DNA of 64,000 bases, taken from contig CBDFKD010000002.1 in assembly GCA_965248695.1 (NCBI GenBank), forward strand, positions 2,528,001-2,592,000. The letters are read 5' to 3'. A program made the translations under genes and the position numbers. The notes under the pieces are model-generated. The model did not search any database. It was given only the letters and a program-made list of their open reading frames with translations, and was not told the DNA's origin. Positions within the stretch are counted from its first letter, which is position 1. Every line of letters begins with the position of its first letter. Of the stretch, positions 11,458-46,805 are shown piece by piece. The stretch comes from Acidobacteriota bacterium. Its GTDB lineage: Bacteria; Acidobacteriota; UBA890; WLXD01.

Positions 11458-11729
11458 CAGGCCGTGGTGGAAGTGTGGCGGGCCTGGCGACAGGGCCTTG
11501 CGAGGTGGAGGCAAGGAGAGAGGAGGAGGCGATGGTTACCCCATCGTTGACGACGAACGACACAGCATTACGCGCGCAACCCCCTGTCGCCCAAAGGGTT
11601 GCGGCGATTTGGGGCCATCTGCGGCGTTGGCCCTCCTCGACGATGGCTAGGGCATCGGCTGCGTCAGGCCGCCTCACATCTGGCCCCAACTCGTCGCAAC
11701 CAGACCCGCCACACTTCCACCACGGCCTG
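11458..11729. mobile_element. MITE-like element, 272 bp, 25-bp perfect terminal inverted repeat, CTAG duplication
   Basis: CAGGCCGTGGTGGAAGTGTGGCGGG at 11458-11482 and its exact reverse complement at 11705-11729; CTAG at 11454-11457 and 11730-11733; no coding capacity. Confidence 0.85.
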
Positions 11730-11737
11730 CTAGCCCG

Positions 11738-12418
11738 ATGAGCCCCTATCGACCTGAGCAGGTCATTCCGCAGCAACTCCGCAAGATCGTCGAGCCGATC
11801 CCGTACTGGTTCGTGATCGGCGGCCATGCCGTTCGTTGCCTGTGTCCGTACCGACCTACGCGTGACGTCGACTTCGGAGTCCGGGAGGCCAGCTCGATCG
11901 ATGCGCTTGTCGAGGAGCTGCAGCGGAGCGGCGACACCGAGATTCTCGAACGCGGCGACGACACGGTCCACTTGCGATGGGACGGCATCGACGTGTCGAT
12001 CTTCTTGCTCGAGGGGATCGCCAGCTTTACCGAAGAGCGCCGTCTGAGCGTCGAGGGCATCCTGGCTACGAAGCTCCATGCCATCATCGATCGCGGCACG
12101 CGGAGGGATTTCTTCGATCTCTACGTCACCTTGCAGGACCAGCAGCTCGGGATCGCCGAGTGCCTCCGTGCGCTCCGCACCGTCTACCAGCAGGACATCA
12201 ACGACTCCCTGGTGCTGCGGGCGCTGACATATTTCCACGACGCCGATCGGGAAGCTCCGATCCCCGGCGAAGGCGAACGCGACTGGGAGCAGGTGCAGGA
12301 CTTCTTCCTGTCGCGCGTCGGTCAGCTCCTGGTGCCACCCGCAGTCCTGCTGGAGATCCAGCGGCTGCGGATCGATGTCAGCGAGGGCGAAGAGCCGACG
12401 ATCAGATCGTCCGGTTGA
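11738..12418 (+). CDS. AbiEii/AbiGii-family nucleotidyltransferase (putative toxin)
   Basis: FVIGGHAV, R.TRDVDF, ATKLHAIIDRGTRRDFFDLY, ALTYF.DA, WEQV..FF. Confidence 0.85.
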   Translation: MSPYRPEQVIPQQLRKIVEPIPYWFVIGGHAVRCLCPYRPTRDVDFGVREASSIDALVEELQRSGDTEILERGDDTVHLRWDGIDVSIFLLEGIASFTEERRLSVEGILATKLHAIIDRGTRRDFFDLYVTLQDQQLGIAECLRALRTVYQQDINDSLVLRALTYFHDADREAPIPGEGERDWEQVQDFFLSRVGQLLVPPAVLLEIQRLRIDVSEGEEPTIRSSG

Positions 12419-12443
12419 GGCGCGTCCAGCAGAGGCTCGGAAG

Positions 12444-13967
12444 TCAGGCGGTGCCCACGAGCTCTTTCATGTACCACTCGACGAAGCTCGACGGGCCACC
12501 TTCGGCGCGCGTATACACGCCGGCGCCATAGCCGCCGGAACGGACGCCGGCGTGATTGTTTTCCACTACCCAGATGTCTTCCTGGATGGTGACGTGCCAC
12601 AGCGCCTTCACCGCCTCCGTGTCGTAGTCGCGACCCTCTACGGCGTCGGGATGCACTAGCCACATGAGCTCACAGTCGGTGAACTCGGCGTCCCGCGGCG
12701 TGAACCGAGCGATACCGATGTGGTCGTCGTAGCACTGGGCGTAGAAGGAGTAGAAGCGCGTGCCGGAGATGCGCGTGCCGTAGGTCCACTCCTTGATGTT
12801 GGGTAGCAACGGCGCCACGGGCTTGCCGTCGAGCGAGCCGGTCTTGAAGCCCGGGTTGAGGTTGCCGCCCATGCTCGACTCGTACTCCGACGCGCCGCCC
12901 ATACCGGCCTCGTCGGAGATCACGCGCTTGCCCTCCGGGGTCACCCAAGCGGCCACCTGAGTGTTGCGTTCGGCGCGCTGCTCCGACGTCATCTCGGCGT
13001 CCCAGTTGTGCGTCGTGACCAGCGATTTGTGCGACGGACCGCAGTGGTAGCACTCCTGGAAGTTCTCCAGCGCCAGCTTCCAGTTCGCATGGATGGCGTA
13101 GGTGTCGCGCACCGCTACCTTGAGATCGGCGGTGCCGTAGTACTGCAACACCGGACGGATGTCGTTGCCGACCTGCTCCTCGAAGTCCGGTGGCTCGTCG
13201 GCAGACAGGTGCACGAAGATGTTGCCCTCGGCAATCTTCAGGTGGCAGGGGACAAGCCCGTTGGCGGCCGGATCGAAGTCGTCCTGCATGCCGTAGGCGT
13301 AGATCAGCGCGCCATCCGTGTCGTACGTCCAGGCGTGGTACGGGCAACGGAACACCGGGCTGCTGCCGCTCTCGCCCAGTTGCTTCACCGACAGCCGTGG
13401 GTCACTCGGGACGGTGTCGGCGTCGTGGCGGCACAACCTAGAGCCACGGTGCCGACAGACGTTATGGAAAGCGTTGATGTCACCGGCCTGGTTGCGCACC
13501 ACGATGACGCTCTCGTTGCGCCCGAACTGATAGACGAAGTAGTCGCCGGCGTTCGGAATGCGGCTGACGTGATCGGCGAACATCCACTGGTTTTCTTTGA
13601 GGAACGCCTCGTCGCGCTCGTAGTTCTCCTGACCGACGTAGTACTCGGCCGGAATCGTCGTGCCGGGCTGCCAGCCGCTGGCGTACCGCTTGGCCGTCGC
13701 GGGCGTGGGCGCAACGATCGATTCCGCTCCGCTGCCGCCATAGCCCACGGCCTTCGGCGGCGGTGCGATCCGATGGGCGACCGGCTTCTTCGTAGCAGTG
13801 GCCGCGTTGGTCGCGGCACGAGGCTTCGTCAACGCCTCGGCGCGGACGGCGCCAGGAAGCGCGACCGCTGCGGCGCCGGCGGCGACAGACGACTTCGCGA
13901 AGTCGCGACGACTGACCTTGTTTGCCTCTGCCTCGTTGCTGCCGTTCTTGTGCCCGCCGTCGCTCAT
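12444..13967 (-). CDS. Rieske non-heme iron oxygenase alpha subunit (GbcA/Stc2-like) with Tat signal
   Basis: CRHRG...CPYHAWTY Rieske site; NWKL..ENFQECYHC..SH and QED iron site; SRRDFAK followed by an Ala-rich h-region; AGGAG RBS before ATG 13967. Confidence 0.85.
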   Translation of the reverse strand: MSDGGHKNGSNEAEANKVSRRDFAKSSVAAGAAAVALPGAVRAEALTKPRAATNAATATKKPVAHRIAPPPKAVGYGGSGAESIVAPTPATAKRYASGWQPGTTIPAEYYVGQENYERDEAFLKENQWMFADHVSRIPNAGDYFVYQFGRNESVIVVRNQAGDINAFHNVCRHRGSRLCRHDADTVPSDPRLSVKQLGESGSSPVFRCPYHAWTYDTDGALIYAYGMQDDFDPAANGLVPCHLKIAEGNIFVHLSADEPPDFEEQVGNDIRPVLQYYGTADLKVAVRDTYAIHANWKLALENFQECYHCGPSHKSLVTTHNWDAEMTSEQRAERNTQVAAWVTPEGKRVISDEAGMGGASEYESSMGGNLNPGFKTGSLDGKPVAPLLPNIKEWTYGTRISGTRFYSFYAQCYDDHIGIARFTPRDAEFTDCELMWLVHPDAVEGRDYDTEAVKALWHVTIQEDIWVVENNHAGVRSGGYGAGVYTRAEGGPSSFVEWYMKELVGTA

Positions 13968-14052
13968 CTCGTCTCCTGCCTGTCTACTGTGCACGTTGCC
14001 GATGGACCGAATACTAGTATGCGGGTACCGCTTCCGGGCCTGGACCTCGAGA

Positions 14053-14940
14053 TCATCTGCCATCGTGCCGTCGATGGCTCATGGTCTCCCGCTGCAGGAT
14101 GTACAGCCCGCTACCCACGATAACGACCGAGCCGGTAACCACGGCGGCGTCGGGCAGGTCGCCCCAGATGGCGAACCCGAACAGGATGCCCCAGAACAGG
14201 CCGGTGTAGTCGAACGGCGCCAGCACCGCGGCGGGCGCCAGCCGATATGCCTGGGCCAGCGTCATCAGAACTCCGACGGTGAGCAGCCCCAGCGCCATCA
14301 GCAACGCCAGATCGGTCGCCGTCGGCGTGATCCATTGCGCTGGCATGAAGAACGCCGTGACCGCCGCCGCACCGAGTATGTCGAACATTACGATCGCCAG
14401 GTTGCTCTCGGTCCGGCTGAGCGCGCGCTGGCTCAGCATCAGCAGCGAATGAAAGACCGCCGCGCCCAGGGCGAACCCGGCGCCGGAGCTGAGAACGCCG
14501 CTGCCCGGGCGCACGATCAGCAGCACCCCGACAAAGCCGACGAGCACGGCTCCCCAGCGGTGAACGCCGACACGCTCGCCGAGCAACGGACCCGACAGGG
14601 CGGCGACGAAAAGCGGCCCCGCAAAGGTGACCGCGATGGCATCGGCGAGCTCCATCTGCGCCACCGCCAGCATGAAGCACACCATGCTCCCGATACTCAA
14701 CAGCGACCGGCCGAGCCGCAGCGGCAGACGACGCGTTCGCAGGCTAGCCCAGCCGGTCGTGTAGCGGGAGAAAACCGCCAGGAGCAACGCCGCGAGCACG
14801 AACCGTATGAACGCGATCTGCAGGAGCGGATAGTTCGGAACCAGCCACTTCAGCAGCGCATCGGTCAGGGTGAGCTGCAGCATGCCGAACGCCACCCAGT
14901 CGATTCCGACGCGGGTTTGCCATTGCTCGGCGGTGGTCAT
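14053..14940 (-). CDS. DMT/EamA family transporter
   Basis: About 10 hydrophobic segments; LLGERVG..RW.AV..GF.G.L.I.RPG; APFDYT. Confidence 0.9.
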   Translation of the reverse strand: MTTAEQWQTRVGIDWVAFGMLQLTLTDALLKWLVPNYPLLQIAFIRFVLAALLLAVFSRYTTGWASLRTRRLPLRLGRSLLSIGSMVCFMLAVAQMELADAIAVTFAGPLFVAALSGPLLGERVGVHRWGAVLVGFVGVLLIVRPGSGVLSSGAGFALGAAVFHSLLMLSQRALSRTESNLAIVMFDILGAAAVTAFFMPAQWITPTATDLALLMALGLLTVGVLMTLAQAYRLAPAAVLAPFDYTGLFWGILFGFAIWGDLPDAAVVTGSVVIVGSGLYILQRETMSHRRHDGR

Positions 14941-15014
14941 GGGCGACGATGGTAGCGCTCAGTCCGCTGCTCCACGGCTGCTCGGCGTGAGGCCCGTCCA
15001 AGAAGAGCGAACAC

Positions 15015-16043
15015 TCAGGGCCATCGCAGATCCACCACCACACCACCGTGATCGCTGGGGAAGACGCGGTCCGCCTGGGGAATAGACGCGTTCTCGAGCA
15101 CCAGCGGGATGACCGTTGCAGCTACCGGCTGCAGTCGCGCCGCGCCCGCCGTCTGAAGAACATAGAGCCGATCGATGCGATCGGCGGTCTCGGGTTGCTC
15201 GGCGGTGCCACGCAGGAGCGGTGACCAGGTGATGCCGGGAGACTGAACCGGGTCCGGATACAGCTGGCGAAAGGCGTCGGCGAACCCAGCGTCCGACATG
15301 GCTCGACTGACGGGAAGATCGAGCGGCCGGCGAAAACGAAAGACCTTGGCCGCGTCGGCGGTCCAGTCCAGGTGCGAGGGCGAGTTCCAATCGCCACCGA
15401 CAAGCAGCGGGACGTCCCCGTTGGTGTGCCCCATCCGGTTCAGGTGCTCGATCAGCGCCGTCGCCTGTCGAAACCGGCCGGAGCGCTCCGTCTCGTCCAG
15501 CAGCAGCGACTCGTCGGATACAGCCGGCTCGTCACGCAGGTGATACGGGGCGTACGCCGCCGAGTCGATCCAGATCGAGTAGGCGACGAACGCGCGACCC
15601 AGATCATCCACCACCCGCGCACCGACGCCATGCCAGTCTTCGTGGAAGAAGGTCTGATCGATCTCCAGCCGAGTCAGCACGCACAGGTGCCGGCTGTCGC
15701 CTTGCCAAGCGTTCCACCCCAGCTCTGCAGCCAGCCAGCGACCGAGCGTCGCTCGATCGCCATCGATTTCGTAGCTCTCCTGGAGCAGCACGATATCGGG
15801 TCGCACGGCGCGAATCACAGCGAGCGTTTTCTCCGGACCATCGGTGAAGTTGGTGGCGCCGTACTGGACGTTCCACACCAGCACTCGAAGATCGCCACGG
15901 CGAGGGACCTCTACGAGCTCCCTTACTGCGGCATCTGACTGAATGATGGGCTCACCGAACAGAGCCGCCGTACCCGCCGTCAGAGCGAGCATGCCCGCGA
16001 GCAGGATCTTCGTTCGGTTGGTCGTCGTCGCAGTTGCTCTCAT
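15015..16043 (-). CDS. Secreted endonuclease/exonuclease/phosphatase family protein
   Basis: VWNV, PDIVLLQE, GGDWNSPSH, RIDRLY, PSDH; N-terminal signal peptide. Confidence 0.85.
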   Translation of the reverse strand: MRATATTTNRTKILLAGMLALTAGTAALFGEPIIQSDAAVRELVEVPRRGDLRVLVWNVQYGATNFTDGPEKTLAVIRAVRPDIVLLQESYEIDGDRATLGRWLAAELGWNAWQGDSRHLCVLTRLEIDQTFFHEDWHGVGARVVDDLGRAFVAYSIWIDSAAYAPYHLRDEPAVSDESLLLDETERSGRFRQATALIEHLNRMGHTNGDVPLLVGGDWNSPSHLDWTADAAKVFRFRRPLDLPVSRAMSDAGFADAFRQLYPDPVQSPGITWSPLLRGTAEQPETADRIDRLYVLQTAGAARLQPVAATVIPLVLENASIPQADRVFPSDHGGVVVDLRWP

Positions 16044-16130
16044 CGAAAACCCTCGGCTCCGCCGCCCGTCACCCTGGAAGGTCCAGAGCGTCGGCGTCTC
16101 CGGCACCTCGCGTATCTGTCAGCCGGATGT

Positions 16131-16247
16131 TCATTGGTCGAGCTCGATGCAGAGGGAGGCGTCGAGGGACGTCTGGCTCGTGGTCAGCGGCCCCGGCGTG
16201 AAGAGCGCCTTGTCCTTCCAACCGGGAAGCCGATGTCGCTCGGTCAT
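16131..16247 (-). pseudogene. phnW: 5' remnant of 2-aminoethylphosphonate:pyruvate transaminase
   Basis: ATGA overlap with the MFS stop. The 38-aa ORF MTERHRLPGWKDKALFTPGPLTTSQT|SLDASLCIELDQ* carries the PhnW N-terminal signature LFTPGPLTTS and lies in the phnX operon. Confidence 0.7.
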
Positions 16248-17581
16248 GGACGCTCACTCTGCAACGCGTCGGGGTGGCCTGGCGGCAAGTAATTCCAGCG
16301 CGCGGTGAGGAGGGCGGCACCGATCCACGCGAGGATCACGAACAGGTAGAAAAGTTGGTCCCAGCCGTATGCTTCGGTGACGTAGGCGACGAGGAACGGA
16401 GAGCATAGCTGGCCAAATGAGCCGACGCCGTTGATCACGCCGGCGGCCTTGCCGGCATGTGCGGCGCTGCCGACATCCTGAGCCGCGGCCCCCGACATCA
16501 GCGTGTCGGGGCCATAGGTGAGAACGCCGATGGCGGCAATCCACAGGGCTACGGACAGACGGCCACCGCTCGCTGCCAGCGGCTGTAGCAGACAGACGAA
16601 ACCAAGGCCCCAAAGCATGACCGCGCCCACCGGGAATCGTCGGGAGCCCAGGAGGCGATCGGATACATAGCCGGCAATGACGGCGCCGGCAAACCCAGCC
16701 AGCTGGTAGAGCGCCGAAGTGTAGCCCGCTTCGCCAGCCTCGTAGCCGATGCGCTCGGTCATGTAGAGAGGGAGCCAGAAGAGAAACGAGTAGCGCGTCA
16801 TCTTCAGGAAGAAGTACATCGCGGCAATGGGCCAGATACCGGGATCCGAGAGCATTGCGGCGAGCGCCTGGAGTGTCCCTGCTTTCGCCGGGCGATTGTC
16901 GGTCCGTGGCGGCGCGCTCGGGATCGGCGCGCCAGCAGCCACCACCGCGCTCACCACGAGGTCCGGCACACCGGCATCGGATGGGGTGTTGCGGCTGCCG
17001 AGCATGTAGATGAACGCGATCAACAACAGCAGTAGCGCCGGGACCCAGAAGGCGCGTCGCCATTGCCACTGCTGCAGAACACTGGCGTTGACCGCCCAGA
17101 AGGTTGCGAATACGGTCGCGAACGCGGCACCGAGCACGTAGCTCGTTCCCCACCAGGCCATCACCACCCCGCGCTCACGCCGTCGAAACCAGGGCGTCAT
17201 GTTCTTGATCAGTCCCGGCCACCCGGTGGATTGGCCGACGCCGTTGAGACCTCCGAGAACGGCGAACGCCAGCAACGACGCCGAGAAGCCCATGAGCAGA
17301 TTGCTCAGCACCGACACGCAAAGCCCGAGGCTGACGACCAATCGCGGGCCGTAGCGATCCACCCAGGCACCGCTGGCGAACTGGCCCAGCGCATACAGCA
17401 GGCTATAGAGCGTGATGACCGTGGCGAAGTCGAACTTGGTGTAGCCCAGGTCCGCGGCCATCAGCGGCATCGCGACGCTGAAGTTCAGCCGGCAGAAGTA
17501 GAAGCCGGCGTATGCCAGCCATGTGGCGGCGAAGACCCGCCTGCGCCAGGTCTTCTGTTCGCGGGTGAGAGCGGAGGTCAG
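16244..17581 (-). CDS. MFS transporter, organophosphate:Pi antiporter (GlpT/UhpC)-like
   Basis: The frame extends upstream of the ORF-track start as TSALTREQKTWRRRVFAATWLAYAGFYFCRLNFSVAM; also GQSTGWP, RERG..M.WW, K.TRYSFLFWLP.Y. Probable CTG start at 17581. Confidence 0.85.
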   Translation of the reverse strand: MTSALTREQKTWRRRVFAATWLAYAGFYFCRLNFSVAMPLMAADLGYTKFDFATVITLYSLLYALGQFASGAWVDRYGPRLVVSLGLCVSVLSNLLMGFSASLLAFAVLGGLNGVGQSTGWPGLIKNMTPWFRRRERGVVMAWWGTSYVLGAAFATVFATFWAVNASVLQQWQWRRAFWVPALLLLLIAFIYMLGSRNTPSDAGVPDLVVSAVVAAGAPIPSAPPRTDNRPAKAGTLQALAAMLSDPGIWPIAAMYFFLKMTRYSFLFWLPLYMTERIGYEAGEAGYTSALYQLAGFAGAVIAGYVSDRLLGSRRFPVGAVMLWGLGFVCLLQPLAASGGRLSVALWIAAIGVLTYGPDTLMSGAAAQDVGSAAHAGKAAGVINGVGSFGQLCSPFLVAYVTEAYGWDQLFYLFVILAWIGAALLTARWNYLPPGHPDALQSERP

Positions 17582-18408
17582 GGCTTTTCACCGCGCGTCA
17601 GTCGCGCCTCGATCTCGTCCAGGATCGGTGCGACGTCGGCGATTCCGTCCACCACATAGTGCGCCCCCGCCTGCGCCATGCGGTGATACGCATCGGCAAG
17701 GCGCTGGTCGCGAACGCCAGGCTCCAGTGAGTCGACCTCTGCCTCGGTCAGGCCGATCTCATTGCCGGTCTTGGCCAGGCCAATGGTCCACATCCCGGCG
17801 TTGAGACCCTCGAATATGTCTGGCAGCGTGTCGCCGATCTTGACGATCGCCTCCATCGGATAGACCTGCAGATCGAGAGCGTTCTTCAGGCACATCCAGG
17901 GATGGGGGCGTGCGGCCGGCACATCGGTTGCACAGACCGTGACGTCCGGCTCGTAGCCGCGTTTCTTGGCCTCAGACAGGAGCAGATCCATCATCTCGCC
18001 CGTATACCCGGTCGTTGATCCGATCTTCAGGCCACGCTCCCGGAAAGACGTAACGGCATCGACGGTACCGGGAATCAGATCCGCATAGTCGGCCAGACAG
18101 TCCATCTGCAGCGGGATGAACTGCTGAAACATGGCCTCGACGTCATCATCGGTCGGGGCGCGCCCGTGGACCTGCTCCCACACGGCGCGCACGTCGTCCA
18201 TTCGCGAGATCGCCTCTATGTGGACCTTCTTGTGGGCGCCCATCGGAATCCGCGCTTGCCCGATCGTGATCGGCACCTGCTGGCGCTTGAAGACCTCCAC
18301 GAACACCACCGCAGGGGCATAGCAGCCGTAGTCCAAGGTGGTGCCGGCCCAATCGAGGATGACGGCTTTCAAGCTGCCTCGGTAGGATCGTTGGAAGTAG
18401 AAATCCAC
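17578..18408 (-). CDS. phnX: Phosphonoacetaldehyde hydrolase
   Basis: AVILDWAGTT.DYG..AP, ARIPMGAHKK.HI (Schiff-base Lys), KIGSTTGY, KIGDT..DI.EG.NAGMW. Confidence 0.93.
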   Translation of the reverse strand: MDFYFQRSYRGSLKAVILDWAGTTLDYGCYAPAVVFVEVFKRQQVPITIGQARIPMGAHKKVHIEAISRMDDVRAVWEQVHGRAPTDDDVEAMFQQFIPLQMDCLADYADLIPGTVDAVTSFRERGLKIGSTTGYTGEMMDLLLSEAKKRGYEPDVTVCATDVPAARPHPWMCLKNALDLQVYPMEAIVKIGDTLPDIFEGLNAGMWTIGLAKTGNEIGLTEAEVDSLEPGVRDQRLADAYHRMAQAGAHYVVDGIADVAPILDEIEARLTRGEKP

Positions 18409-18528
18409 CAGTGTCCGTCCTGACTCCGTTCCGATACGTGTGTGGAGCAGCCAGAGTACCGGAGACGGCGAGGGCGGACCACGAGACCGCGTCCGCTCGG
18501 GCGCTGGCTTCAACCAGACCGGCGCGCC

Positions 18529-20827: not shown

Positions 20828-20909
20828 TCGGGCACCGGCAACATGAGCCTCGCGTGAATCGGGCTCATTCGCCCGCGGCCATGATCGCTCTCCGCCTGCA
20901 GAACCGCGA

Positions 20910-22854: not shown

Positions 22855-25800
22855 CTACTGTGCCCAGGCTTCGTTCCAGTCGATCCCGTTGTAGTCATCA
22901 AGCTCCCAGTAGAACCTCGTCCGGGGCCGGTCGTAGTTGCCGATCTCGTTCATGCTCAGCGAGTCGTACAGGCGACCGTTGACCATCGAGTAGCGCACCG
23001 TATTGGTGTTCTCGATGTCCTCCAGCGGGTTGGCGTCCAGCACGATCAGGTCGGCCAGCTTGCCTTCTTCGAGGCTACCGATTTGGGCGTCGAGGCCGAG
23101 CGTCTTGGCCCCGTTGAGCGTTGCGGTGCGCAGCACCCGGTGATTCGACATTCCGCCTTGCGCCAGCAGCCACATTTCCCAGTGCAGCGCCAGGCCGGCA
23201 ACCTCGCCGTGTGATCCCGCGTTGATCAACACGCCGGCGTCGTCGAGCTTCTTCATCGAGCGAGACACAGCGCGGAATCCGATGTCCCAGAGCTCGTCGG
23301 CAACGTGTACGGTCGTCATTCCCCGCACATGCGGCGGCGCCGCCCCGGGGGTCTCGAGGGGGCTGTAGCCCGAGGTCACCGTTTGAACGTAGGTCCTTAC
23401 CTTCGGGTCGTCCCAGGCGCGGCGGGTCTGATAGATGAAGTTCTCGCCAAACAGCTCGCCGAAGCCGACCACGAGGGTCGGCGTGTGAGCCACCTGGCTG
23501 TGGGCGAACAGCTGCACCAGGTCGTCGTAGTAGTTGGCGATCGGAAAGTTGTGCTCCACGGCAACGTGACCATCGAGCACCATGGACACGTTGTTGTAGA
23601 AGTGACTCTCGCCCTCGATGTCGACCGTGATCCCGGCTTCGCGACCCGCTCTGACGAGCTGCTGACGCTGGCTGCGCATGGGCTGCTTATAGCTCTTGAC
23701 GATCGTGCCGCCGAGGGCGGTCTTGCGCGCCATGACAACCTGAGCGTCCGCGAAGCTGCTGATGGGCTCGAAGACAAAGTCGCGCTTCTGTGAGCGGCCG
23801 TAGACGACGCTTCCCACGTTGATCGCGCGCGGGCCGACGGTGATGCCGGCCAGATTCATCTCGTTGATCGCGTACGCCGGCAGATCCGTCGAGTATGGAT
23901 CGAAGTTGGTGGTCACCCCGAAGGCGAGTGCCGCGTACCGCTCGGGTTGTTTCTGCGGCATGCTGTCGGCCGGCGGATAGCAGCAATCGATGTGGCCGTG
24001 CATGTCGATCAGACCGGGCATGATGGTCTTGCCGCTGACGTCGATGAGCGTCGCGCCATCAGGGATCGCGATCTCGTTGCGGTCGCCAACCGCCGCGATT
24101 CGGTTCCCCTCGACGACGACAACGCCGTTCTCGATGACCTCCTCACCACGCATGGTGATAACGCGGGCGTTGATCAGGGCCACCGTGCCTTCGGGGGCAT
24201 CGGCAGGTACGACCAGGCCGATCGATGCAATCGCCTCGGTCGGCTCCGCGTCGCCGCCGAACACCTCGGCGACCGTGGCGCGGTACAGAGCAGATCCCAG
24301 TGTCCAGTGCACGGATTCCGAGTCGGCGCTCCAGGCGAGGTTGTAGCCGCCGTAGTCCGTCAATGCGGCGACGGGAACGGCGTCGCCGTCGGGGCTGACC
24401 TGCAGCGGAGCTCCCGCTTCCCGATATGGCATGACGTAGTACTGCTTGTGGTAGCTGAACCCCAACCAGCGGTGATCGGGGCTCAGCGTCATCTCGAGCA
24501 CATCGGTTCCGGAGGCGTGCGCGCGGATGTCGAACCCGTCCAAATTGCTGCTCTCGAGTCGGCCGACACGCGTCGCGGTGGAGTAGAAGCCGCCGCCGCC
24601 GCCTTCGGAGCTGATATAGGAGTAGAAGACGCGCTCGCCATCGGGTGAGAACTTGGGAGCGAGACCGCGCTCGACGACGAAGTGGGTGTCGCGCTCAGCG
24701 ATCGAGACCCAGTGGATCCCCGGCTTGGCGCGATAGCCCCCCATGTGCTTGCTGGGTGCCTCGATTCGATACACGAGGCGCTGCCCATCCGCCGAGAACG
24801 CCGGTTGTCGAATCACGCCACTGCTGTTGGCGATAGGGGCGGCGGCGCCGCCGCTGGTAGAGATCACCTTCAGCCTGCTGCCGCGCTCGTCGTCCCACTC
24901 CACGAAGGCAATCGAGCTGCCATCCGGCGAATACACCGGCTCCGCCTCGAATACCGAAGAGTCCGTGAGGCGCTCCGGCGCCCCTCCGGGCAGCCTCTTC
25001 CGCCACAGTCGTCCCAAGGCGTTGAAAACGACGGTGTTCCCGTCCGGCGACGGCGCCAGGTGACGAATCGCCCGCACCGTGACCTTCTCCGGTGCCAGGT
25101 CGGTGGCGAAGCGCGCCGTCTGGGTAATGCGGTGATGGGCAGTGACTCGGAAGGGGATCTCCGCGCTCGTCGCGTTATCCATGTCGATCTTCAGCAGCTT
25201 GCCCTTGCCCCAGATCGCCACGTGACGGTTGTCGGGAAACCAGTCGAACCCCGGGTAGTAGGCACTCTGCTGCATGAAATCCGCCCGCGCGTCCCGGTCG
25301 AGATCGTCATAGACAGGTCGCTGCCGACCGCTTTCGGTGTTGAGCTCGAAAAGCACGGTCTTCGCCTTGACTCGGCGGATAAAGGCCACTCGCTTGCCAT
25401 CCGGCGACACCTGCGGAGTCGTCGCGCCACCGAGACCACGCAGCACCTCTTCCGTGGCACCGCTACTCAGGTTCCTGCGCTTTACGGCGAAGCCGGCGTG
25501 ATTGGCATCCACAAAAATGCTCGGGCTGTCGACGCGTTCCGTGTAGTAGAGGAACTTCCCATCGTCCGAGAGCTCCGCCTCGTGGACGTCTCTCTGATTT
25601 GCCGGAGTCTCGACCAGGATGCGACCACTGCCGCCGCCGAGGTGAAAGAGCCGTATCTCCGAGGCTCGCACCTTCGGGAACGTCCCGTACCGCTTGGCGG
25701 CGGCGACATATTGGCCGCCGGGATCCCAGGCAGGACCCGTGAGCACGTCCGTGGTCTCGTTCGTTATCTGTTGTGCGGCGGAACCGTCCGCTTCAGAGAC

Positions 25801-28610: not shown

Positions 28611-28637
28611 GAAGATTTGTCCTCGGCGGGGAGCTAG

Positions 28638-28812
28638 TGGCCTGTATCAGGGGAATCGATAGCGCCGCAGATGGGATTTGCGGGCGAGATCAAGGCGCGG
28701 CGAGGATGGCGATGCCGCGGCGCATCGTCGACGAGTCGCAACGCGGAGATCGCCCGCAACTGCCCGTCTGTCCGCAGGATGGCGGCGAAATCGATTCCCC
28801 TGTTACAGGCCA
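28638..28812. mobile_element. MITE-like element, 175 bp, 22/23-bp terminal inverted repeat, CTAG duplication
   Basis: TGGCCTGTATCAGGGGAATCGAT ... ATCGATTCCCCTGTTACAGGCCA; CTAG at 28634-28637 and 28813-28816; homologous to 46625-46805 in the opposite orientation. Confidence 0.88.
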
Positions 28813-29187
28813 CTAGTGTGGCAAGCTCTGGTCGCGGCGCTCCAGAATCCAGTCGTGGAATCGAGCCTGCTGATCTGGCCGCAACAGCGCCGCGATCTCC
28901 GTATGCACGTCGCGCATTGCACTCTGAACCTCGGGACGAAGCTGCTCCCACATGCTCTGCACGATCTGCTGGCGCTCGGCCATGATGGCGTGAATCTGCT
29001 CCGTCTGCCGCTCGTCCAGATCGAGGGCCTGGCGCAGGTCGGTCAGGGCAGCCTCGTGCTCATCAGCCGCCGACAACGCGCCGTGCAGCTGGATCGAATG
29101 ATGACGCTCGACGGCCATTCCGGCGACACCACCGGCAGTGAATACGAACAGCAAAACGAGCCCGGCACGAACCCGCGGCGCGATCAC
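28813..29187 (-). CDS. Membrane-anchored periplasmic helical protein (Spy/CpxP/CnrX-like)
   Basis: TM segment LVLLFVFTAGGVAG, then L.L...Q..QI..I and I.ALL.PDQQ.RF; fourth gene of the ECF operon. Confidence 0.6.
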   Translation of the reverse strand: MIAPRVRAGLVLLFVFTAGGVAGMAVERHHSIQLHGALSAADEHEAALTDLRQALDLDERQTEQIHAIMAERQQIVQSMWEQLRPEVQSAMRDVHTEIAALLRPDQQARFHDWILERRDQSLPH

Positions 29188-36002: not shown

Positions 36003-36025
36003 TCGTCACCTCGCGAACATGCCCC

Positions 36026-37441: not shown

Positions 37442-37449
37442 CGTTGCCT

Positions 37450-39900: not shown

Positions 39901-40231
39901 GCCACCTTCATATCTAGGCAGGAGCGTCACCCAGAGGCGGGAGCGGAACATCGGAGCAGCAAAGCGTCCGGCACTCCGGAGGCTCGCTGCCGACCTCGAA
40001 ACATAACACCAGAACCGAATTCTACCGGGTATGTGGCCAATCTCCAGGAGATCGAGCTCAACTCTGGAATTCAGCTTCGCTGGTCTCACCGCCGCCGAAA
40101 CTGCCGAGGCACTGGGCGTGTCACTGAGCACGGTCGAGAGAAGCTGGCGTGCCGTGCGCACATACCTTGGTCGGGAGCTGGCGGGGGCTCCCTGATCTCA
40201 TGTTTCCTCGGCCCTGAGCGCGCAAGCGGAT

Positions 40232-40257
40232 GAAACCGTTTCGCGCCCGTGGCCGTC
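40232..40257 (+). promoter_or_regulatory. Possible ECF-type promoter
   Basis: GAAAC-N17-CGTC about 50 nt upstream of ATG 40308. Confidence 0.35.
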
Positions 40258-40307
40258 CTGCATAGCAGGACTGCACGCGTTCGCTACGGCCAAACTCGGG
40301 AACGACT

Positions 40308-42863
40308 ATGGACAGCCTCTGGCAGGACTTTCGCTACGCGGTACGCGTGCTGGGCAAGAACCCCGGCTTCACCGTCGTGGCGGTGCTGGTGCTGGCGCTC
40401 GGCATCGGCGCCAACACGTCGATGTTCACGCTCACCAACGCTCTCCTGCTGCGACCGATCGAGGCCGAGGCTCCGCACGAGCTGGTGGCGCTCTACGGCA
40501 AGAACGTCGCACGCCCGGACTCGTATCGTGCGTTCTCCTACCCGAACTTCGAGGACGTGCGGGAGCTGAGCAACACCTTCACCAGCCTGATGGCGCACGA
40601 CATCACAGCGGTGGGGCTGACCGAGGGCGACGTGACGCGGCGCATCTTCGCCGAGTTCGCCTCGCACGACTATCTGGACACCTTCGGTGTGGTGCCGTTC
40701 CGCGGCCGCTTCTTCACGGCTGCGGAGGAAGCGCCGGAGTCGGGAGTTCCTGTCGCCGTCGTGAGCTACGAATACTGGAGAAGGACGGGGCGCGATCCCG
40801 AGCTCGTTGGCAACGCGGTGGAAGTCAACGGTCAAACGTTGACCATCGTCGGCATCGCACCGCGCAATTTCACCGGCCGTACCGCGCTCCTGTCGCCTAG
40901 CCTGTACATCCCACTGGGGATGTACCACCTGCTGGTGAACGAGACGTTCGGCGGCGACAGCGGTCAGTCGCTGTCGGATCGTGACAATCACGACCTTTTC
41001 CTCGTCGGACGCCTGCGCTCCGGACTGACCATCGACGAGGCGAATGTCGAGCTGGAGGTGCTAGCGGCGCAGCTTGAGGACGCGCACGCGGCGATCAACC
41101 AGGATCAGACGATCATCGTCGACGCGCTGTCGCGCCTCGGCGTGAGCACGAGCCCCAACAGCGACGACGGCATCGGGCTGGTGGTGGCGCTGCTGATGGG
41201 GATGACGAGCATCGTCCTGCTGATCGCCTGCATCAACCTCGCCAACATGATGCTGGCCCGCGGCGCTGTTCGCCGTAAGGAGTTTGCCATCCGCGCCGCG
41301 ATCGGCGGCGGGCGAGTGCGCATCGTGCGACAGCTGCTTACCGAGGGGCTGCTGCTGTCGGTTCTGGGTGGACTCGCGGGGCTGGCAATCTCCTATTGGG
41401 TGAACACGCTGATGGCGGCCTCGATGAACCAACTGCTGGCAATGAACAGCCTGGCCATGGACATCGTCCTGCACGCTGCCCCCGACACTCGCGTGCTACT
41501 CGCGACCGCCGCGTTCTGTCTGATCGGCACGCTGTTGTTCGGCTTCGGACCCGCGTGGCGGCAGTCGCGCCCCGACGTCATGCAGGATCTAAAGGACCAG
41601 ATCGGAAACGCCACCGGTGGACGCCACGGTCGCCGCCCAGGGCGGCGCAACCTGCTCGTGGTTAGCCAGATCGCGCTGTCGCTGGTACTGCTGACGTCGG
41701 CGGGGCTGTTCATCCGCGGCGCCTTGAAGGCGGCGAACGTCGATCCCGGGTTCGACATCGACAACGGCTTGCTAGTAGAGATCGATCCGAGCCTCGCCGG
41801 CTACGACGATCTGCAGAGCAAGGATCTCTATCGCCGGCTCATCGATCGGCTCCGTAGCATTCCCGAGATCGAGGCGGCGAGCGTAGCCGCCACGGTAGCG
41901 TTCGGAACCGTCTCGAACGGAAGTAGCGTGCGCCGCGCCGAGGACCTACCAGTGGCGTCCGGGGACGGCACCGAGGAGATCGAGACCGTCTCGGCAACCT
42001 CCAACGTTGTCGGCGACGACTACTTCGAGGCCCTCGGAACGGGTGTGGCTCGAGGCCGCGGCTTCACCCTCGCCGAGTCTGAAACCGACAGCGGGCCTCG
42101 CGTCGCCATCATCGATGAGCTGTTGGCGGCCGAGCTGTGGCCGGGGCCGGATCCGCTCGGACGCTCCATCGGATTCGGACGCGATCCGAGCACTCGAGGT
42201 AGCAACGACAGGGAGGTTGTCGGCGTCGTCAAGACGGTCCGCGACGACTTGTTTCCGGCCGAGCCCCGCCCGCATGTGTACATGCCGTTCGGCCAGAGCT
42301 TCCAGGCGGGGATGAACATTCACCTGCGCGCCGCGCCGATGGGTGACGACGCCCGCGCTGCGTTGCTGCGAACCGTGCGACGTGAAATGCGGGCGGTCGA
42401 CGATCGGCTGCCGATACTGAGCCTCAAGACGCTACAGGGTCATATCAGCGAGAGCGCCAGCCTGTGGGTGGTCGGCCTCGGTGCCACCATCTTCACCGCC
42501 TTCGGGGCGCTGGCGCTATTCCTGGCGGTGGTCGGTGTTTACGGGGTCAAGGCGTACACCGTTGCCCAGCGCACGCGCGAGATCGGCATTCGCAAGTCGC
42601 TGGGCGCTTCCGCCAGCGACACGCTATGGCTGATCCTCCGAGAAGGCCTGATGCTGACGCTCGCCGGCCTGGGGATCGGCCTCGTGCTGTCGGCTAGTGT
42701 GGCGCGACTGCTATCCAGCCTGCTCTACGAGGTCAGCGCCCTCGATCCGCTCGCCTTCATCGCCGCACCGTTGATCTTGGCCGCCGCGTCGCTGCTTGCT
42801 ACCTACCTGCCGGCACGGCGGGCAGCGAACATCGCCCCGATCACTGCCTTGCGCCATCAGTAG
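40308..42863 (+). CDS. ADOP-family duplicated ABC permease
   Basis: QDFRYAVR.L.KNPGFT, LALGIGAN, LLIAC.NLAN, RTREIGIR, PARRAA. Confidence 0.92.
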   Translation: MDSLWQDFRYAVRVLGKNPGFTVVAVLVLALGIGANTSMFTLTNALLLRPIEAEAPHELVALYGKNVARPDSYRAFSYPNFEDVRELSNTFTSLMAHDITAVGLTEGDVTRRIFAEFASHDYLDTFGVVPFRGRFFTAAEEAPESGVPVAVVSYEYWRRTGRDPELVGNAVEVNGQTLTIVGIAPRNFTGRTALLSPSLYIPLGMYHLLVNETFGGDSGQSLSDRDNHDLFLVGRLRSGLTIDEANVELEVLAAQLEDAHAAINQDQTIIVDALSRLGVSTSPNSDDGIGLVVALLMGMTSIVLLIACINLANMMLARGAVRRKEFAIRAAIGGGRVRIVRQLLTEGLLLSVLGGLAGLAISYWVNTLMAASMNQLLAMNSLAMDIVLHAAPDTRVLLATAAFCLIGTLLFGFGPAWRQSRPDVMQDLKDQIGNATGGRHGRRPGRRNLLVVSQIALSLVLLTSAGLFIRGALKAANVDPGFDIDNGLLVEIDPSLAGYDDLQSKDLYRRLIDRLRSIPEIEAASVAATVAFGTVSNGSSVRRAEDLPVASGDGTEEIETVSATSNVVGDDYFEALGTGVARGRGFTLAESETDSGPRVAIIDELLAAELWPGPDPLGRSIGFGRDPSTRGSNDREVVGVVKTVRDDLFPAEPRPHVYMPFGQSFQAGMNIHLRAAPMGDDARAALLRTVRREMRAVDDRLPILSLKTLQGHISESASLWVVGLGATIFTAFGALALFLAVVGVYGVKAYTVAQRTREIGIRKSLGASASDTLWLILREGLMLTLAGLGIGLVLSASVARLLSSLLYEVSALDPLAFIAAPLILAAASLLATYLPARRAANIAPITALRHQ

Positions 42864-44460
42864 TCGGAAACACCGCCTCCGGCGGCTGTTCGGGAAGCGG
42901 CTCGACGAATCGGTACTCGCCGTCGAACACGCTGCGGTTGCCGTCGGGTGCCCACCGACCCCAGATCGCCTGCACCATGTCGTCGGTCAGGTTCACCATG
43001 CGATGCATGGTATTCGGCGCGATGTACACGATCTCGCCGCGCTCGGCGATAAACGTATCGTCGCCAAGCGTCCACTCGGTCTGCCCGCTCAGAACGACGT
43101 AGAACTCCGGTACCGGATGCACGTGACCAGCGTAGATCGCCCGCGGCGCGAGCTCCCACAACCCGACCTGCAGGTCGTCGTCCGGGATCGAGTCGCCACC
43201 GATGACGGTGTTCCAGCGCTGAATACCGAAGGTGGTCTCCCATCCGAGCGCCGCGGCGTTGACATGTGCCGGCACCGGAGGCTCCGGGTCGGAGACGCGT
43301 ATCACGGCCGACAGCGACATCTGGTCCGCCAGGTAGAGGTCGGCTACTTCCAGACCAAGGTTCTCGGGAACGATGTCGTTCATGTTGCACATCACGAAGG
43401 TGGAGAACTGCTGATCTGGAAAGCGCACGTAGTACGCCTTGAAGCCCATGAACGAGCCGGTGTGCCCGAGCGTTCGCAGGCCGCGATGCTCCCCCTCGCG
43501 GATCGCGAACGCGTAGTCCAGCACCTCGCCACTGTTGAGCACGCCCTTGGTATGCATCACGTCCATGAAGTCGGGCCCACCGAGCCGGTTGTCGAGGAAG
43601 TTGCGGTCCCAACGGATGAAGTCCTCGACTGTGGTGTAGAGCCCGCCGGCGCCGGGCAGGGCGAAGTTTCCCTGATAGCTCTGGATGTAGCGGTCGGAGC
43701 CCTTCCCGCCGGTGGCCGGCGACGGCATGTAGCTCATGGCGCGGCGGGCGACAATGTGCACCGGGTCGTCGTGGAAGTGCGTGTTGCTCATGCCGAGAGG
43801 CTCGAAGATCCGCTCGGTGGTGTATTCACGAAGGCTCATGCCGCTGGCCCGCTGCACCACCATCGACAGCAGCAGATAGCCGCCGTTGGAGTACTGGTAC
43901 TTGTCCCCCGGCGGGAAATCGAGCTCCTGGCGCGCTAGCAACGCCAGGGCCTCATCGCGACTGAACTGGTTCCACGTGGTGAGCCCGTTCTCGCGCATCA
44001 CCCGGTACATGTCGGGCACACCACTGGTGTGGTGTACCAGGTGCCGAACCGTGACCGGCGGGTCGCGGTCGGGCATCTCCGGCAGGTACTCGCGGACGTC
44101 GTCATCGAGAGCAAGCTTGCCGTCGTGCGCCAGGAAGGCAATGGCGGCGGCGGTGAACTGCTTGGAGACGGAGCCGACGTAGATGACGGTCGTCGGGCTC
44201 ATCGGGATGTCCCAGTCGAGGTTGGCGTGCCCGTATCCGTTCTTGTAGATCAGCTTTCCTTGGTCAGCCACGCCCAGGGAGCATCCGACGGATCCCGGCT
44301 CATCAAACTGCGCGAACACTGCGTCTATTTCGCCCGGGTCCGGGATCTGCAACGCGACCGGCCCGGCCTCCTGCGCTTCTCCGACGCCAGGAACCCCCGA
44401 CAGCAAAGCCGCCAAAGCGACGGTCACCGACACAAAGGGAACGCGCAGCAGCCTCATCAT
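42841..44460 (-). CDS. Serine hydrolase (class C beta-lactamase-like) with C-terminal cupin domain
   Basis: SVSK, LVHHTSG, YSN, GHTG; C-terminal GHVHPVPEFYVVLSG...PNTMH. Confidence 0.85.
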   Translation of the reverse strand: MMRLLRVPFVSVTVALAALLSGVPGVGEAQEAGPVALQIPDPGEIDAVFAQFDEPGSVGCSLGVADQGKLIYKNGYGHANLDWDIPMSPTTVIYVGSVSKQFTAAAIAFLAHDGKLALDDDVREYLPEMPDRDPPVTVRHLVHHTSGVPDMYRVMRENGLTTWNQFSRDEALALLARQELDFPPGDKYQYSNGGYLLLSMVVQRASGMSLREYTTERIFEPLGMSNTHFHDDPVHIVARRAMSYMPSPATGGKGSDRYIQSYQGNFALPGAGGLYTTVEDFIRWDRNFLDNRLGGPDFMDVMHTKGVLNSGEVLDYAFAIREGEHRGLRTLGHTGSFMGFKAYYVRFPDQQFSTFVMCNMNDIVPENLGLEVADLYLADQMSLSAVIRVSDPEPPVPAHVNAAALGWETTFGIQRWNTVIGGDSIPDDDLQVGLWELAPRAIYAGHVHPVPEFYVVLSGQTEWTLGDDTFIAERGEIVYIAPNTMHRMVNLTDDMVQAIWGRWAPDGNRSVFDGEYRFVEPLPEQPPEAVFPTTDGARQ

Positions 44461-44477
44461 GCCCTCCTTGGGTTGCG

Positions 44478-46550
44478 TCAACCGCCGTAGCGCTCGAACC
44501 ACTCGATCATACGGCGCAGCCGCTCGACCAGATTCACCGGGGTGCCGTTGCGCGACAGGCCGTGGTTCTCGCCACGGAACACCAGCAACTCGGTGTCGAC
44601 AGCGTTGTTCTTCAGCGCGTAGAACCACTCCTCAGCTTGACCAAGGGGGCAGATCATATCCTGATCGCTGTGGATGATCAGGGTCGGCGTGGTTACGTTG
44701 TCGGCGTGCTTCAGGGGCGAGCGATCCCAGTACAGATCCCAGTTGTCCCAAAGGTTGCCGCCAAACTCGTCGCGCATGGCGCGCGGGGTGTACTGCTGGG
44801 TACCGGCCTCCGAGACCCAGCTGGACACGCTGCGCTGGGTGACGGCGGCTCGGAACCTGCCGGTCTGGGTGGTGATCCAGTTGGTGAGGAAGCCGCCGTG
44901 GCTGCCGCCAGTGACAAACAGTCGTTCCGGGTCGATCCAGTCGTAACGCGCCAGCAGCTCGTCGACCAGCTGCATGTTGTCGCGATAGTCGACGCCGCCG
45001 TAGTCGAGGCGCACGGCGCTCTGATGCGCGTCGCCGTAGCCTGTAGAACCACGATAGTTCACGAAGGTCACGGCCCAGCCCCTACCGGCGAGCATCTGGT
45101 TCTCGTGGAACCACTGATAGCCCCACATGCCACCGGGACCGCCCTTGATGTTCAGCACCAGTGGGATCTTGCCCTCGGTCGGAACAACCGGACGCAGCAG
45201 AAACGCCTGCACCTCGGTGCCGTCATCGTTGGTAAACCGAATCTCCTCGAGCTCGCCACGCGCCAGCGGCGCTAGCAAATCCTCGTTGAGCCGGGTGAGC
45301 TGACGCATCGAGCCGCCGTCGGCGCTGGCGACGAACACCTCGGGCAACGATTGCTCGTCGTCGAGGGTGAAGGCGATTCGGTCCGCACCCGTGGCGACGG
45401 ACAGGTTTCGCACCGACCAGTCGGGCTCCAGTAAACGCGTCGCCGCGGCGGTCGTGACATCGAGGCGGAACAGCCCGCGGCTGCCCTGATCGTCGGCAAC
45501 GAGAAAGATCGCCGAGCTGTCGCGCGACCAACTCAACGAGCCCGGATTGCGATCGAGGCTCGAGGTGACGTTGCGCGGCGGATCCGATCCGTCGAGCGCT
45601 CGCACGAAGACGTCGGGCTGGTCGTACGGAGCGTCGGTGCGGACGTAGGCGACCCTCGTCCCGTCGGGAGAGATCCGCGCGCCGGAGTCCCGGTGTGCTT
45701 GCGTGGTGAGCTGCACCGGTACGATCGACTCGGGGCTCGACAGGTCGCCGGCAAGATCGATGCGCCAGATATCGGAGTTGGAGCCGCCGTCGTACTCGAG
45801 CCCGGTGCGGTCCGACGAGAAGACCAGGGTGGCGCTGTCGTTCGATAGGTGCGGAGAGCTGTCGTTCCAGGCAGTGCCGTGGGTCAGCTGCACGCTCGTG
45901 CCGGTCTCGATGTCGAACAGAAAGAGATGCCGACGACGCTGGTCGAGGTAGCCGCGACCGTTGGCCTTGTACAGCGCGTCCTTGACGACGTCGAGGTCCG
46001 GCCTGGGCTCCGTGGCCGAGGCATCCTCATCTGACGTTTTGGGCCCTTCCAGCGTCAGCAACAGCCGGTCGCCGCTGGGCAGCCACTGCAACTCGCCAAC
46101 GCCGCCCTCGATTCTGCTCCGCTGTCGCGCCTCACCGCCGTCGCGAGGCATGAGGAAGACTTGCGACGACTCCGGGATCGCGGCGCTAGTCGAATCTGTC
46201 CCCGTGGTCTCGGCACCGGTTCGCAGGAAGGCGATCGCCGTGCCATCGGGCGACCATCGAGGAGAACCATCGGTCGTGCCGGCGGTGAGCGGTCGCGGAC
46301 GGGCGGAGCCGTCCGCTGCGACCATCCAGATGGTGCGATCACGGCCGCGACGATCGTCGCTAACGTCAGCGACGACGAACAGCACCTCCTCGCCGTTTGG
46401 CGATATCTGCACGTCGCTGATCTGTCGGAACGCGTAGTAGTCCTCCGGAACCATGGGCCGCGCGGCCAGGCCGGTGGCTTCCTGAGCCGACCAGGCGGGA
46501 ACGGCGAGACACAACCCGAGTATGCTGCCGGCGGCGTAGAGCGTTCGCAT
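44478..46550 (-). CDS. S9 family peptidase
   Basis: Beta-propeller SPDG repeats, GGP, NYRGSTGYG, GGSHGG nucleophile motif, catalytic D and H (ENHG); AAGGA RBS before ATG 46550. Confidence 0.9.
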   Translation of the reverse strand: MRTLYAAGSILGLCLAVPAWSAQEATGLAARPMVPEDYYAFRQISDVQISPNGEEVLFVVADVSDDRRGRDRTIWMVAADGSARPRPLTAGTTDGSPRWSPDGTAIAFLRTGAETTGTDSTSAAIPESSQVFLMPRDGGEARQRSRIEGGVGELQWLPSGDRLLLTLEGPKTSDEDASATEPRPDLDVVKDALYKANGRGYLDQRRRHLFLFDIETGTSVQLTHGTAWNDSSPHLSNDSATLVFSSDRTGLEYDGGSNSDIWRIDLAGDLSSPESIVPVQLTTQAHRDSGARISPDGTRVAYVRTDAPYDQPDVFVRALDGSDPPRNVTSSLDRNPGSLSWSRDSSAIFLVADDQGSRGLFRLDVTTAAATRLLEPDWSVRNLSVATGADRIAFTLDDEQSLPEVFVASADGGSMRQLTRLNEDLLAPLARGELEEIRFTNDDGTEVQAFLLRPVVPTEGKIPLVLNIKGGPGGMWGYQWFHENQMLAGRGWAVTFVNYRGSTGYGDAHQSAVRLDYGGVDYRDNMQLVDELLARYDWIDPERLFVTGGSHGGFLTNWITTQTGRFRAAVTQRSVSSWVSEAGTQQYTPRAMRDEFGGNLWDNWDLYWDRSPLKHADNVTTPTLIIHSDQDMICPLGQAEEWFYALKNNAVDTELLVFRGENHGLSRNGTPVNLVERLRRMIEWFERYGG

Positions 46551-46624
46551 TTGGCTTCCTTTCGGCTGATTCGCCGACCGTGGGAAATGCTCACGATTTC
46601 CCCGGGTACGGCAAACTCTGCTAG

Positions 46625-46805
46625 TGGCTTGTAACAGATGATCGTCGCCACTGTTCTCTTGATGGGCCTGCGGACAGATGGGCAGTTGCGGGCGATCTCG
46701 GCGTTGCGGCTCCTGGACGATGTCCAAGCATCGACTTCGTCGCCGCGCCTTGATCTCACCCGCAAATCCCATCTGCGATAGGCAACGTTCATCTGTTACA
46801 GGCCA
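46625..46805. mobile_element. MITE-like element, 181 bp, 22/25-bp terminal inverted repeat, CTAG duplication
   Basis: TGGCTTGTAACAGATGATCGTCGCC ... GGCAACGTTCATCTGTTACAGGCCA; CTAG at 46621-46624 and 46806-46809; interior homologous to 28638-28812. Confidence 0.88.

Follow-up and report, generated by a model that had tools for sequence, protein, structure and literature searches.

CTAG-inserting miniature transposable elements of Acidobacteriota carry a conserved, covarying hairpin core between changing ends

A 64,000-nucleotide stretch of an Acidobacteriota bacterium genome (assembly GCA_965248695.1, contig CBDFKD010000002.1, positions 2,528,001 to 2,592,000; this whole stretch is referred to as the window) contains three miniature transposable elements of the inverted-repeat kind (MITEs), small nonautonomous transposons with terminal inverted repeats (TIRs) that insert at CTAG. 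These elements, which we name E1 (11458..11729), E2 (28638..28812), and E3 (46625..46805), have TIRs, are flanked by CTAG on both sides, are small and devoid of a transposase open reading frame (ORF), and belong to a family with many copies in the genome that holds the window (G000; 5.89 Mb, 65% G+C, 2 contigs, 96% complete). An earlier note on this DNA had reported three CTAG-flanked elements at these positions and no transposase in the window, and both statements hold, as do the core sequences that it quoted. MITE families are usually defined by their ends, while their interiors drift. The family described here consists of ordinary MITEs with one unusual property, a deeply conserved, covarying, and strand-specific core between changing ends. 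We consider it probable, though well short of certain, that as a whole these are CTAG-inserting MITEs of the IS630 type carrying a passenger hairpin that is kept by lineage selection.

RNAalifold folds 25 core modules of G000 into a rod-shaped hairpin in which 14 of 23 pairs carry compensatory changes, and a covariance model was built from 25 G000 modules. De novo alignment and folding (MAFFT and RNAalifold) of 41 sequences from the phylum that were not model seeds returned the same hairpin, with compensatory changes at 19 of its 21 pairs. We also generated an alignment (A3) of 148 distinct rows from other public genomes, its loci picked with a search pattern in which the tip helix and GA motifs are fixed and its rows fitted to the covariance model. 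In this alignment 93.8% of cells pair, compared with 69.9% in shuffles; the cells changed on both sides number 651 versus 194 in shuffles, counts that overstate independent events because of kinship among the sequences; and the covariation score is 0.481, versus 0.129 for shuffled alignments and at most 0.10 with slid partners. This kinship, and the fitting of the rows to the model from loci found with a column-fixing pattern, both weaken the case for the reading given above. The S:S position in the "GA loop," which the selecting pattern left free, is C:G in 99 rows, G:C in 47, and another combination in 1. The claim that the core is a conserved, covarying hairpin is thus borne out by the compensatory pairs found with RNAalifold, the covariation across 148 rows, and a strand-specific signature.

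The module keeps the purine-rich motifs AAGGCG, GA-S-G, A-S-GA, and CAACGC, and its conserved unpaired letters form symmetric motifs, namely 5'-GA/5'-GA tandem mismatches and A.G / S:S / G.A. In a kink-turn, by definition, tandem G.A / A.G pairs come after a bulge of 3 nt. The GA loops had been called "kink-turn-like," but they are symmetric internal loops beside helices, with a single Watson-Crick pair set between tandem G.A / A.G mismatches, and since the 3-nt bulge is absent, the core is not a kink-turn. The signature of a single folding strand comes from the paired columns, in which G:U outnumbers A:C by 105 to 24 and, in a second alignment, by 46 to 11 (approximately 4:1 in each); an excess of this kind indicates that one strand folds. 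Among mismatches in these columns, 158 are purine-purine and 15 are pyrimidine-pyrimidine. Computed with RNA energies, the sense strand is more stable than its complement in 99 of 121 and in 30 of 43 modules, whereas under DNA energy parameters both strands fold equally well. A single-stranded fold fits these data, with RNA fitting somewhat better than DNA.

The mismatches also bear on an explanation in which the hairpin has no function at all, the palindrome appearing to covary because one arm is copied from the other at the DNA level during repair or replication, and the motifs being inherited from one recent, transferred ancestor. Several facts would suit such an origin: MITEs are palindromic from the start, much of the covariation separates a few subfamilies, and slippage across the palindrome does happen, as CTAG-flanked 17-nt remnants (see below) attest. 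Arm copying would nevertheless erase the G.A / A.G mismatches, and these persist, flanked by covarying stems, in every subfamily and from phylum to phylum, so that fixed G.A mismatches beside covarying stems argue against simple copying of arm from arm. At many positions of the stems, moreover, between four and six kinds of pair are seen, no symmetric process at the DNA level accounts for G:U exceeding A:C, and the core can still be aligned between about ten types of TIR. We regard a functionless hairpin as very unlikely.

The module is widespread. As the earlier note had proposed, the covariance model was run beyond the window, and in a sample of 151 genomes of the phylum (Acidobacteriota by record titles; the unpublished genome G071 enters into this tally only) it found the module in 39, distributed over many families. 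A pattern scan gave at least 117 loci, with approximately 100 titled Acidobacteriota among the matches listed. At least 13 loci lie in metagenome-assembled genomes (MAGs) with other titles, comprising Gemmatimonadota or Gemmatimonadales (at least 5), Planctomycetota or Planctomycetia (at least 4), Myxococcota (at least 2), Bradymonadales (at least 1), and a proteobacterium (at least 1); some of these are on contigs of 0.9 to 1.9 Mb, and MAG labels can be wrong. The core pattern has no match in IMG/VR viral contigs, and E1 has none in PLSDB plasmids. Comparison with Rfam assigned the window to no family at gathering scores, and only chance-level matches to E1 and E2 appeared at E ≤ 10. An origin of the module from signal recognition particle (SRP) RNA is not supported, with no SRP family at E ≤ 10 in Rfam. 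The open-access literature yielded no description of these elements, although the MITE catalogues of PMC11602168 may already list them.

Across 55 two-module loci from many taxa, the modules can be aligned, and some ten sequence types can be told apart by eye among the TIRs, most of which are preceded by (C/T)TA(G/A). The proposal that the same core sits between different ends is therefore supported well beyond the two end types of the window, here called A and B. These two had been described as unrelated, yet both have CTAG + N1-2 + GGCC(G/T)GT in common and are part of a spread of related ends. A further possibility, which we put forward only tentatively, is that the hairpin pair is itself the evolving unit. 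It would then be a selfish structured module, active as RNA or single-stranded DNA, that has lasted across Acidobacteriota and entered other phyla through repeated acquisition of new TIRs suited to whichever TA- or CTAG-targeting transposase is available (IS630-type, perhaps IS5-type), its purine-rich loops binding a conserved factor that promotes mobilization.

Within G000, we searched for type-A ends with a 25-nt tip and up to 4 mismatches and for type-B ends with a 13-nt tip and up to 1 mismatch. This recovered 125 type-A ends, 98 of which are preceded by CTAG, and 135 type-B ends, 100 of which are; they occur as 30 A>A< pairs, 33 B>B< pairs, 4 nested B>A>A<B< arrangements, and approximately 100 solitary ends. 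Complete CTAG...CTAG inverted-repeat pairs number 65, including 61 elements of 75 to 558 bp. Type-A elements are usually 271 bp long and type-B elements 270 or 283 bp, and E2 and E3 are short one-module forms. A profile search with the core gave 137 matches, 106 of them near-full modules of ∼110 nt that form five subfamilies. A typical 270-bp element reads TIR, module (+), module (-), TIR, and this head-to-head arrangement means that the sense strand of each module reads inward from the nearer end. In the consensus fold of whole elements, the two TIRs pair with each other and leave two hairpin arms. One A-like element is nested in the CTAG of the loop of a B-type module, with junctions that now read TTAG and CTGG. 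What the earlier note took for a degenerate fourth copy at ∼11511 to 11566 in E1 is a real module (11483..11593), but it is not decayed: this module type is the second module of every type-A element and recurs in other genomes, and it is a paralogue (a sister module) rather than a worn copy.

CTAG is scarce in G000, with 4,485 sites against 18,976 expected from base composition, an approximately four-fold underrepresentation; roughly 200 of these sites flank the MITEs. Insertion rebuilds CTAG on both sides, which restores a stop codon of the form C+TAG and leaves the gene intact. In the window, each of the three elements has one flanking CTAG that supplies the TAG stop of an ORF, in line with the earlier note, and in the genome-wide count that the note called for, a TAG stop adjoins 29 of the 61 complete elements, compared with 583 of 4,333 other CTAG sites. 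Such an enrichment is expected, because the stop is rebuilt while insertions inside genes are lost.

Comparison with relatives shows E2 absent from the orthologous site in G004 and, judging by the spacing of flank matches, in G002, and present in G003. The G003 site orthologous to E3 (L225, 1487-1520) consists of CTAG, 14 nt of B-type TIR, and CTAG, and it is a deletion remnant rather than a clean empty site. No clean empty CTAG site was recovered in a close relative, and no counterpart of either E1 flank exists in four genomes of the same genus, hence no empty site for E1. Further shortened forms occur in G000 itself. These are 17-nt mini-palindromes, TGGCCTGT-N-ACAGGCCA, made only of two B-type TIR tips, of which there are several, most flanked by CTAG (for example, G000:C2 351923-351939, 694588-694604, 3854956-3854972, and 3899764-3899780), and deletion forms of 31 and 49 nt. 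The mini-palindromes fit slippage between CTGT direct repeats at the foot of a long hairpin, and as slippage remnants they hint at folding of the palindrome in vivo, as single-stranded DNA. In G002, B-type 270-bp copies at different sites (L286-L295) are 97 to 99% identical, which suggests fairly recent activity in a same-genus genome; two pairs of these loci share flanks and are maybe assembly duplicates.

Changes private to single resident copies indicate where selection acts. They number 77 in 296 paired columns, where 47 of them break a pair, and 26 in 130 unpaired columns, and whole elements show the same pattern as modules. Resident copies thus decay as if neutral, and selection appears to act on the propagating lineage. 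This pattern, with changes as fast in paired as in unpaired columns, speaks against a core that serves the host as an RNA element within mRNAs, for instance as a 3'-end stabilizer, a processing site, or a protein-binding site, with benefit to the host explaining the conservation. Such a role would be in keeping with the position of E1, E2, and E3, each of which separates a stop codon from the gene that follows on the same strand and is thus probably transcribed, with the association of 29 of 61 elements with TAG stops, and with the sense-strand stability seen under RNA parameters only and the G:U excess. It would also suit the E2 orthologue, the single orthologous copy examined, in which 7 of 175 nt differ between G000 and G003 (96% identity) against 84% identity over the whole 775-nt match, since an element better conserved than its surroundings would fit selection in place. 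Yet purifying selection against insertions within genes would by itself produce the enrichment at stop codons, neither E1 nor E2 contains a sigma-70-like promoter or intrinsic terminator, and the better module shows no orientation bias relative to the incoming gene, being sense 11 times and antisense 17 times out of 28. We consider a host-serving RNA role improbable.

We favor instead the passenger hairpin kept by lineage selection, in which the elements would insert at the TA of 5'-CTAG-3' in the manner of IS630/Tc1-mariner-type transposases, and the module would be a passenger whose fold and purine-rich motifs are kept across the phylum while the surrounding TIRs change. The fold would be kept by selection on the still-propagating lineage and not on each resident copy, and given selection at that level the most likely role would be a cis-acting one, the single-stranded hairpin aiding mobilization or establishment of the element. 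It could form in RNA, from transcription entering at the flank, or in a DNA strand with its 5' end at the element terminus. Any role of the hairpin is an inference.

The identity of the mobilizing enzyme is suggested by insertion sequences (ISs) of relatives. A six-frame search of G000 found no DDE_Tnp_1 (PF01609), DDE_Tnp_4 (PF13359), DDE_3 (PF13358), or Y1 (PF01797) transposase, and IS630-family ISs, with DDE_3 and helix-turn-helix (HTH) domains, are present in related genomes. IS630 reportedly targets the TA in CTAG (Tenzen and Ohtsubo, 1991). In the order of the window host we examined 30 DDE_3 loci, and the approximately 19 for which ends could be defined, by script or by copy alignment, are all flanked by C-TA-G; in a second run of 27 loci from the wider phylum and 10 from the order, 12 had defined ends and 6 of these had CTAG on both sides. 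One IS of 1,109 bp (L254, in G136, also a genome of this phylum), whose ORF has DDE_3 and HTH domains, starts CTAG-TGGCCTGTAACA, with 12 nt identical to and in register with the first 12 nt of the B-type TIR. These ISs are filled by the transposase gene and have no module inside, and with no room for it there, the module is a passenger rather than an IS remnant. Mobilization by IS630-type enzymes for all TIR types is an extension from these cases. The IS630-family IS of G007 ends in TCTCCTGTA(A/T)CAG. At L049 (900-2378) in that genome, a 1.2-kb IS630-family IS and an A-like MITE adjoin with one CTAG in common, and in further copies of the G007 IS (L052, L042, and L059) the match likewise runs on into an A-like MITE. 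G007 is a 5.1-Mb genome with a very large IS load, including 43 DDE_3 and at least 80 DDE_Tnp_1 matches. G002 has six DDE_3 genes, and no IS end read there matches type B; in G039, where an IS630-family IS is abundant, its ends do not match the sequence around the single module locus that was read.

A number of observations weigh against a passenger hairpin in IS630-type MITEs, adding to the two properties of the 148-row alignment noted above, to the equal folding of both strands under DNA parameters, and to the well-conserved E2 orthologue. In subfamily M1, private changes are 2 in 31 unpaired columns against 19 in 78 paired columns. G000 itself has no DDE_3 gene, DDE_3 is missing from 6 of 15 genomes rich in module matches, and genomes that bear modules have it only slightly more often (18 of 39, versus 30 of 112 others, a tally made by hand that takes both scans as covering the same 151 genomes). 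The type-A end found no autonomous partner in 57 DDE_3 loci examined, and G136, which hosts the IS with B-type ends, has no module match. To our knowledge, Tc1/IS630-type cut-and-paste transposition has no known single-stranded step, such that a role for a hairpin there would be without precedent. Finally, G011 carries a CTAG-flanked, 0.82-kb PF01609 (IS5-like) IS with ends GGCCTGTTAACAC, and some TIR types may accordingly belong to another IS family.

This last IS is central to the alternative that transposases of the IS5 family or of PIF/Harbinger-like type (DDE_Tnp_1), rather than IS630-family enzymes, move some or all of the elements. Its ends are near the B-type tip with a one-base shift, G011 is rich in modules and lacks DDE_3, and some TIR types of other taxa (GGGCCTGTCA.AAATAA) are flanked by TAA or TTA. 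Counted from CTAG, however, the IS5-like end agrees with the B-type TIR at 7 of 13 positions, as opposed to 12 of 12 for the IS630-family end of L254; the MITEs examined in G011 (L075) have A-like ends, unlike those of the IS5-like IS; and PF01609 and PF13359 are as absent from G000 as DDE_3. The earlier suggestion of an IS5 or IS1182 connection is thus revised: the B-type end has its 12-nt match in an IS630-family IS, and given the CTAG-flanked IS5-like IS with similar ends in G011, some relatives of the elements may be mobilized by IS5-type enzymes. We rate this alternative as rather unlikely.

Long CTAG-bounded inverted-repeat pairs in G000 (L001-L004, 1,255 to 2,359 bp) were considered as autonomous partners and rejected by their contents, which include in one case a secreted protein with a B-like end on either side, in another an IS3-like inverted duplicate, and in a third a beta-propeller gene. 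The duplicate (L002, G000:C2:2300478-2302211) is a CTAG-bounded arrangement in which a 342-amino-acid ORF faces a 207-amino-acid copy of its own N-terminal part, and it looks like an IS3-family (integrase-core) transposase gene.

Among known systems, the elements are like MITEs derived from IS630/Tc1-mariner transposons in being short and without an ORF, in having TIRs and many copies, and in inserting at TA (here in CTAG), and their type-B ends match an IS630-family IS. RUP of pneumococcus is one MITE with such a derivation. They are unlike the usual members of this group in that the interior is conserved phylum-wide with a covarying fold while the TIRs vary and in that the host genome is without a cognate transposase. 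MITEEc1_IS630 is given as a bacterial MITE of the IS630 kind in PMC11602168. Likeness to ERIC had also been suggested, and both are intergenic imperfect palindromes of similar size, but a blastn search with E2 found no match at E ≤ 0.01 in 5,426 complete Escherichia coli genomes, and the suggestion is abandoned. Plant MITE-derived hairpin precursors in Rfam are long fold-back hairpins too, and the matches to MIR1437 and MIR1858 are weak (35.8 and 22.3 bits, versus gathering scores of 168 and 137); this likeness is generic to long hairpins and does not amount to membership. The Correia/NEMIS elements of Neisseria are TA-flanked TIR elements with hundreds of copies, which form RNA hairpins inside mRNAs and have no known host transposase. 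By that description, the present elements resemble them in the TA-flanked TIRs and the lack of a known transposase in the host; we know of no covarying core common to different ends and phyla in Correia/NEMIS.

REPIN/BIME elements share with the present ones a pair of inverted hairpin-forming units dispersed in intergenic DNA, whereas here the units are ∼110 nt and come with TIRs, a duplicated target site, and no Y1 transposase. The resemblance of two inverted hairpins to a REP doublet, and a strand-specific fold that would suit an enzyme acting on single-stranded DNA, could be taken to mean that these are REPIN/BIME-like palindrome pairs moved by a RAYT-type (Y1/HUH) transposase on single-stranded hairpins. 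Set against this, Y1_Tnp (PF01797) has no match in G000, REPINs lack the long TIRs and duplicated CTAG found here, and the modules are approximately three times REP length, so that we give this explanation hardly any credence.

What sets the family apart is its conserved interior, which is combined with some ten sorts of ends in a major phylum of soil bacteria and, it appears, outside it as well. Should mobilization depend on the hairpin, this would imply that IS630-type transposition includes an unrecognized step, single-stranded or dependent on RNA, or uses an unrecognized host factor; if the hairpin pair is the evolving unit, it would be a cis-acting element of DNA transposons that belongs to a new class. 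The covariance model flags hundreds of repeats that break Acidobacteriota assemblies, accounts for many CTAG/TAG-stop junctions, and supplies markers for comparing close genomes by which insertions they have or lack. Direct tests are feasible because the system is small.

In the window, the covariance model finds exactly four modules, which confirms the count only, as these four are among the seeds of the model; an IUPAC pattern of the core has 3 matches, compared with 0.00 expected from 100 shuffles. The terminal arms of E1, E2, and E3 span 34 to 39 nt and are 82 to 97% complementary. E1 is a type-A MITE of 272 bp, with 24 near-full copies in G000, and is composed of a TIR, an alpha module, a beta module, and a second TIR. 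Its left TIR (11458..11487, +) begins CAGGCCGTGGTGGAAG... and its right TIR (11700..11729, -) is the other inverted-repeat arm; with the flanking CTAG, the arms extend over 11454-11487 and 11700-11733 (34 nt, 97% complementary). The alpha-type module, of subfamily M5 (11483..11593, +), is a model seed scoring 80.6 bits, and the beta-type module, of subfamily M2 (11595..11704, -), has a CTAG inside its loop and scores 98.7 bits sense versus 21.6 antisense. E2, a type-B MITE of 175 bp, contains one module of subfamily M1 (28663..28773, +; 99.8 bits), and E3, a type-B MITE of 181 bp, contains one M1 module with the GACG/AGGAG variant (46672..46780, -; 104 bits). The cores of E2 and E3 are ∼91% alike and lie in opposite orientations.

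The left CTAG of E1 (11454..11457) provides the TAG stop of ORF 10951..11457(+), and its right CTAG (11730..11733) is followed by an AbiEii-like gene that begins at 11738. E2 lies between CTAG at 28634..28637 and at 28813..28816, where CTA is the TAG stop of ORF 28813..29187(-) read in reverse. The CTAG sites of E3 are 46621..46624 and 46806..46809, the latter likewise supplying, as CTA, the TAG stop of a mandelate-racemase-family gene (46806..47912, -). All three of these ORFs pass a test based on the open frame and third-codon-position G+C (GC3); the Pfam match is to the mandelate racemase family for 46806..47912(-) only, with none for 10951..11457(+) or 28813..29187(-). The region from 10951 to 12418 places E1 between a 168-amino-acid ORF without a Pfam match and the AbiEii-like toxin gene (PF08843, 5.9e-12), and from this position E1 may lie inside a type IV toxin-antitoxin pair. 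Elsewhere in the window, adjacent stretches of ∼1.9 kb (3119-4964 and 5077-6978) are 72 to 79% identical and look like tandem paralogous genes, and two pairs of distant repeats with 71 to 73% identity (40369-40452 with 51378-51461, and 22963-23184 with 51751-51972) are probably paralogous coding sequence.

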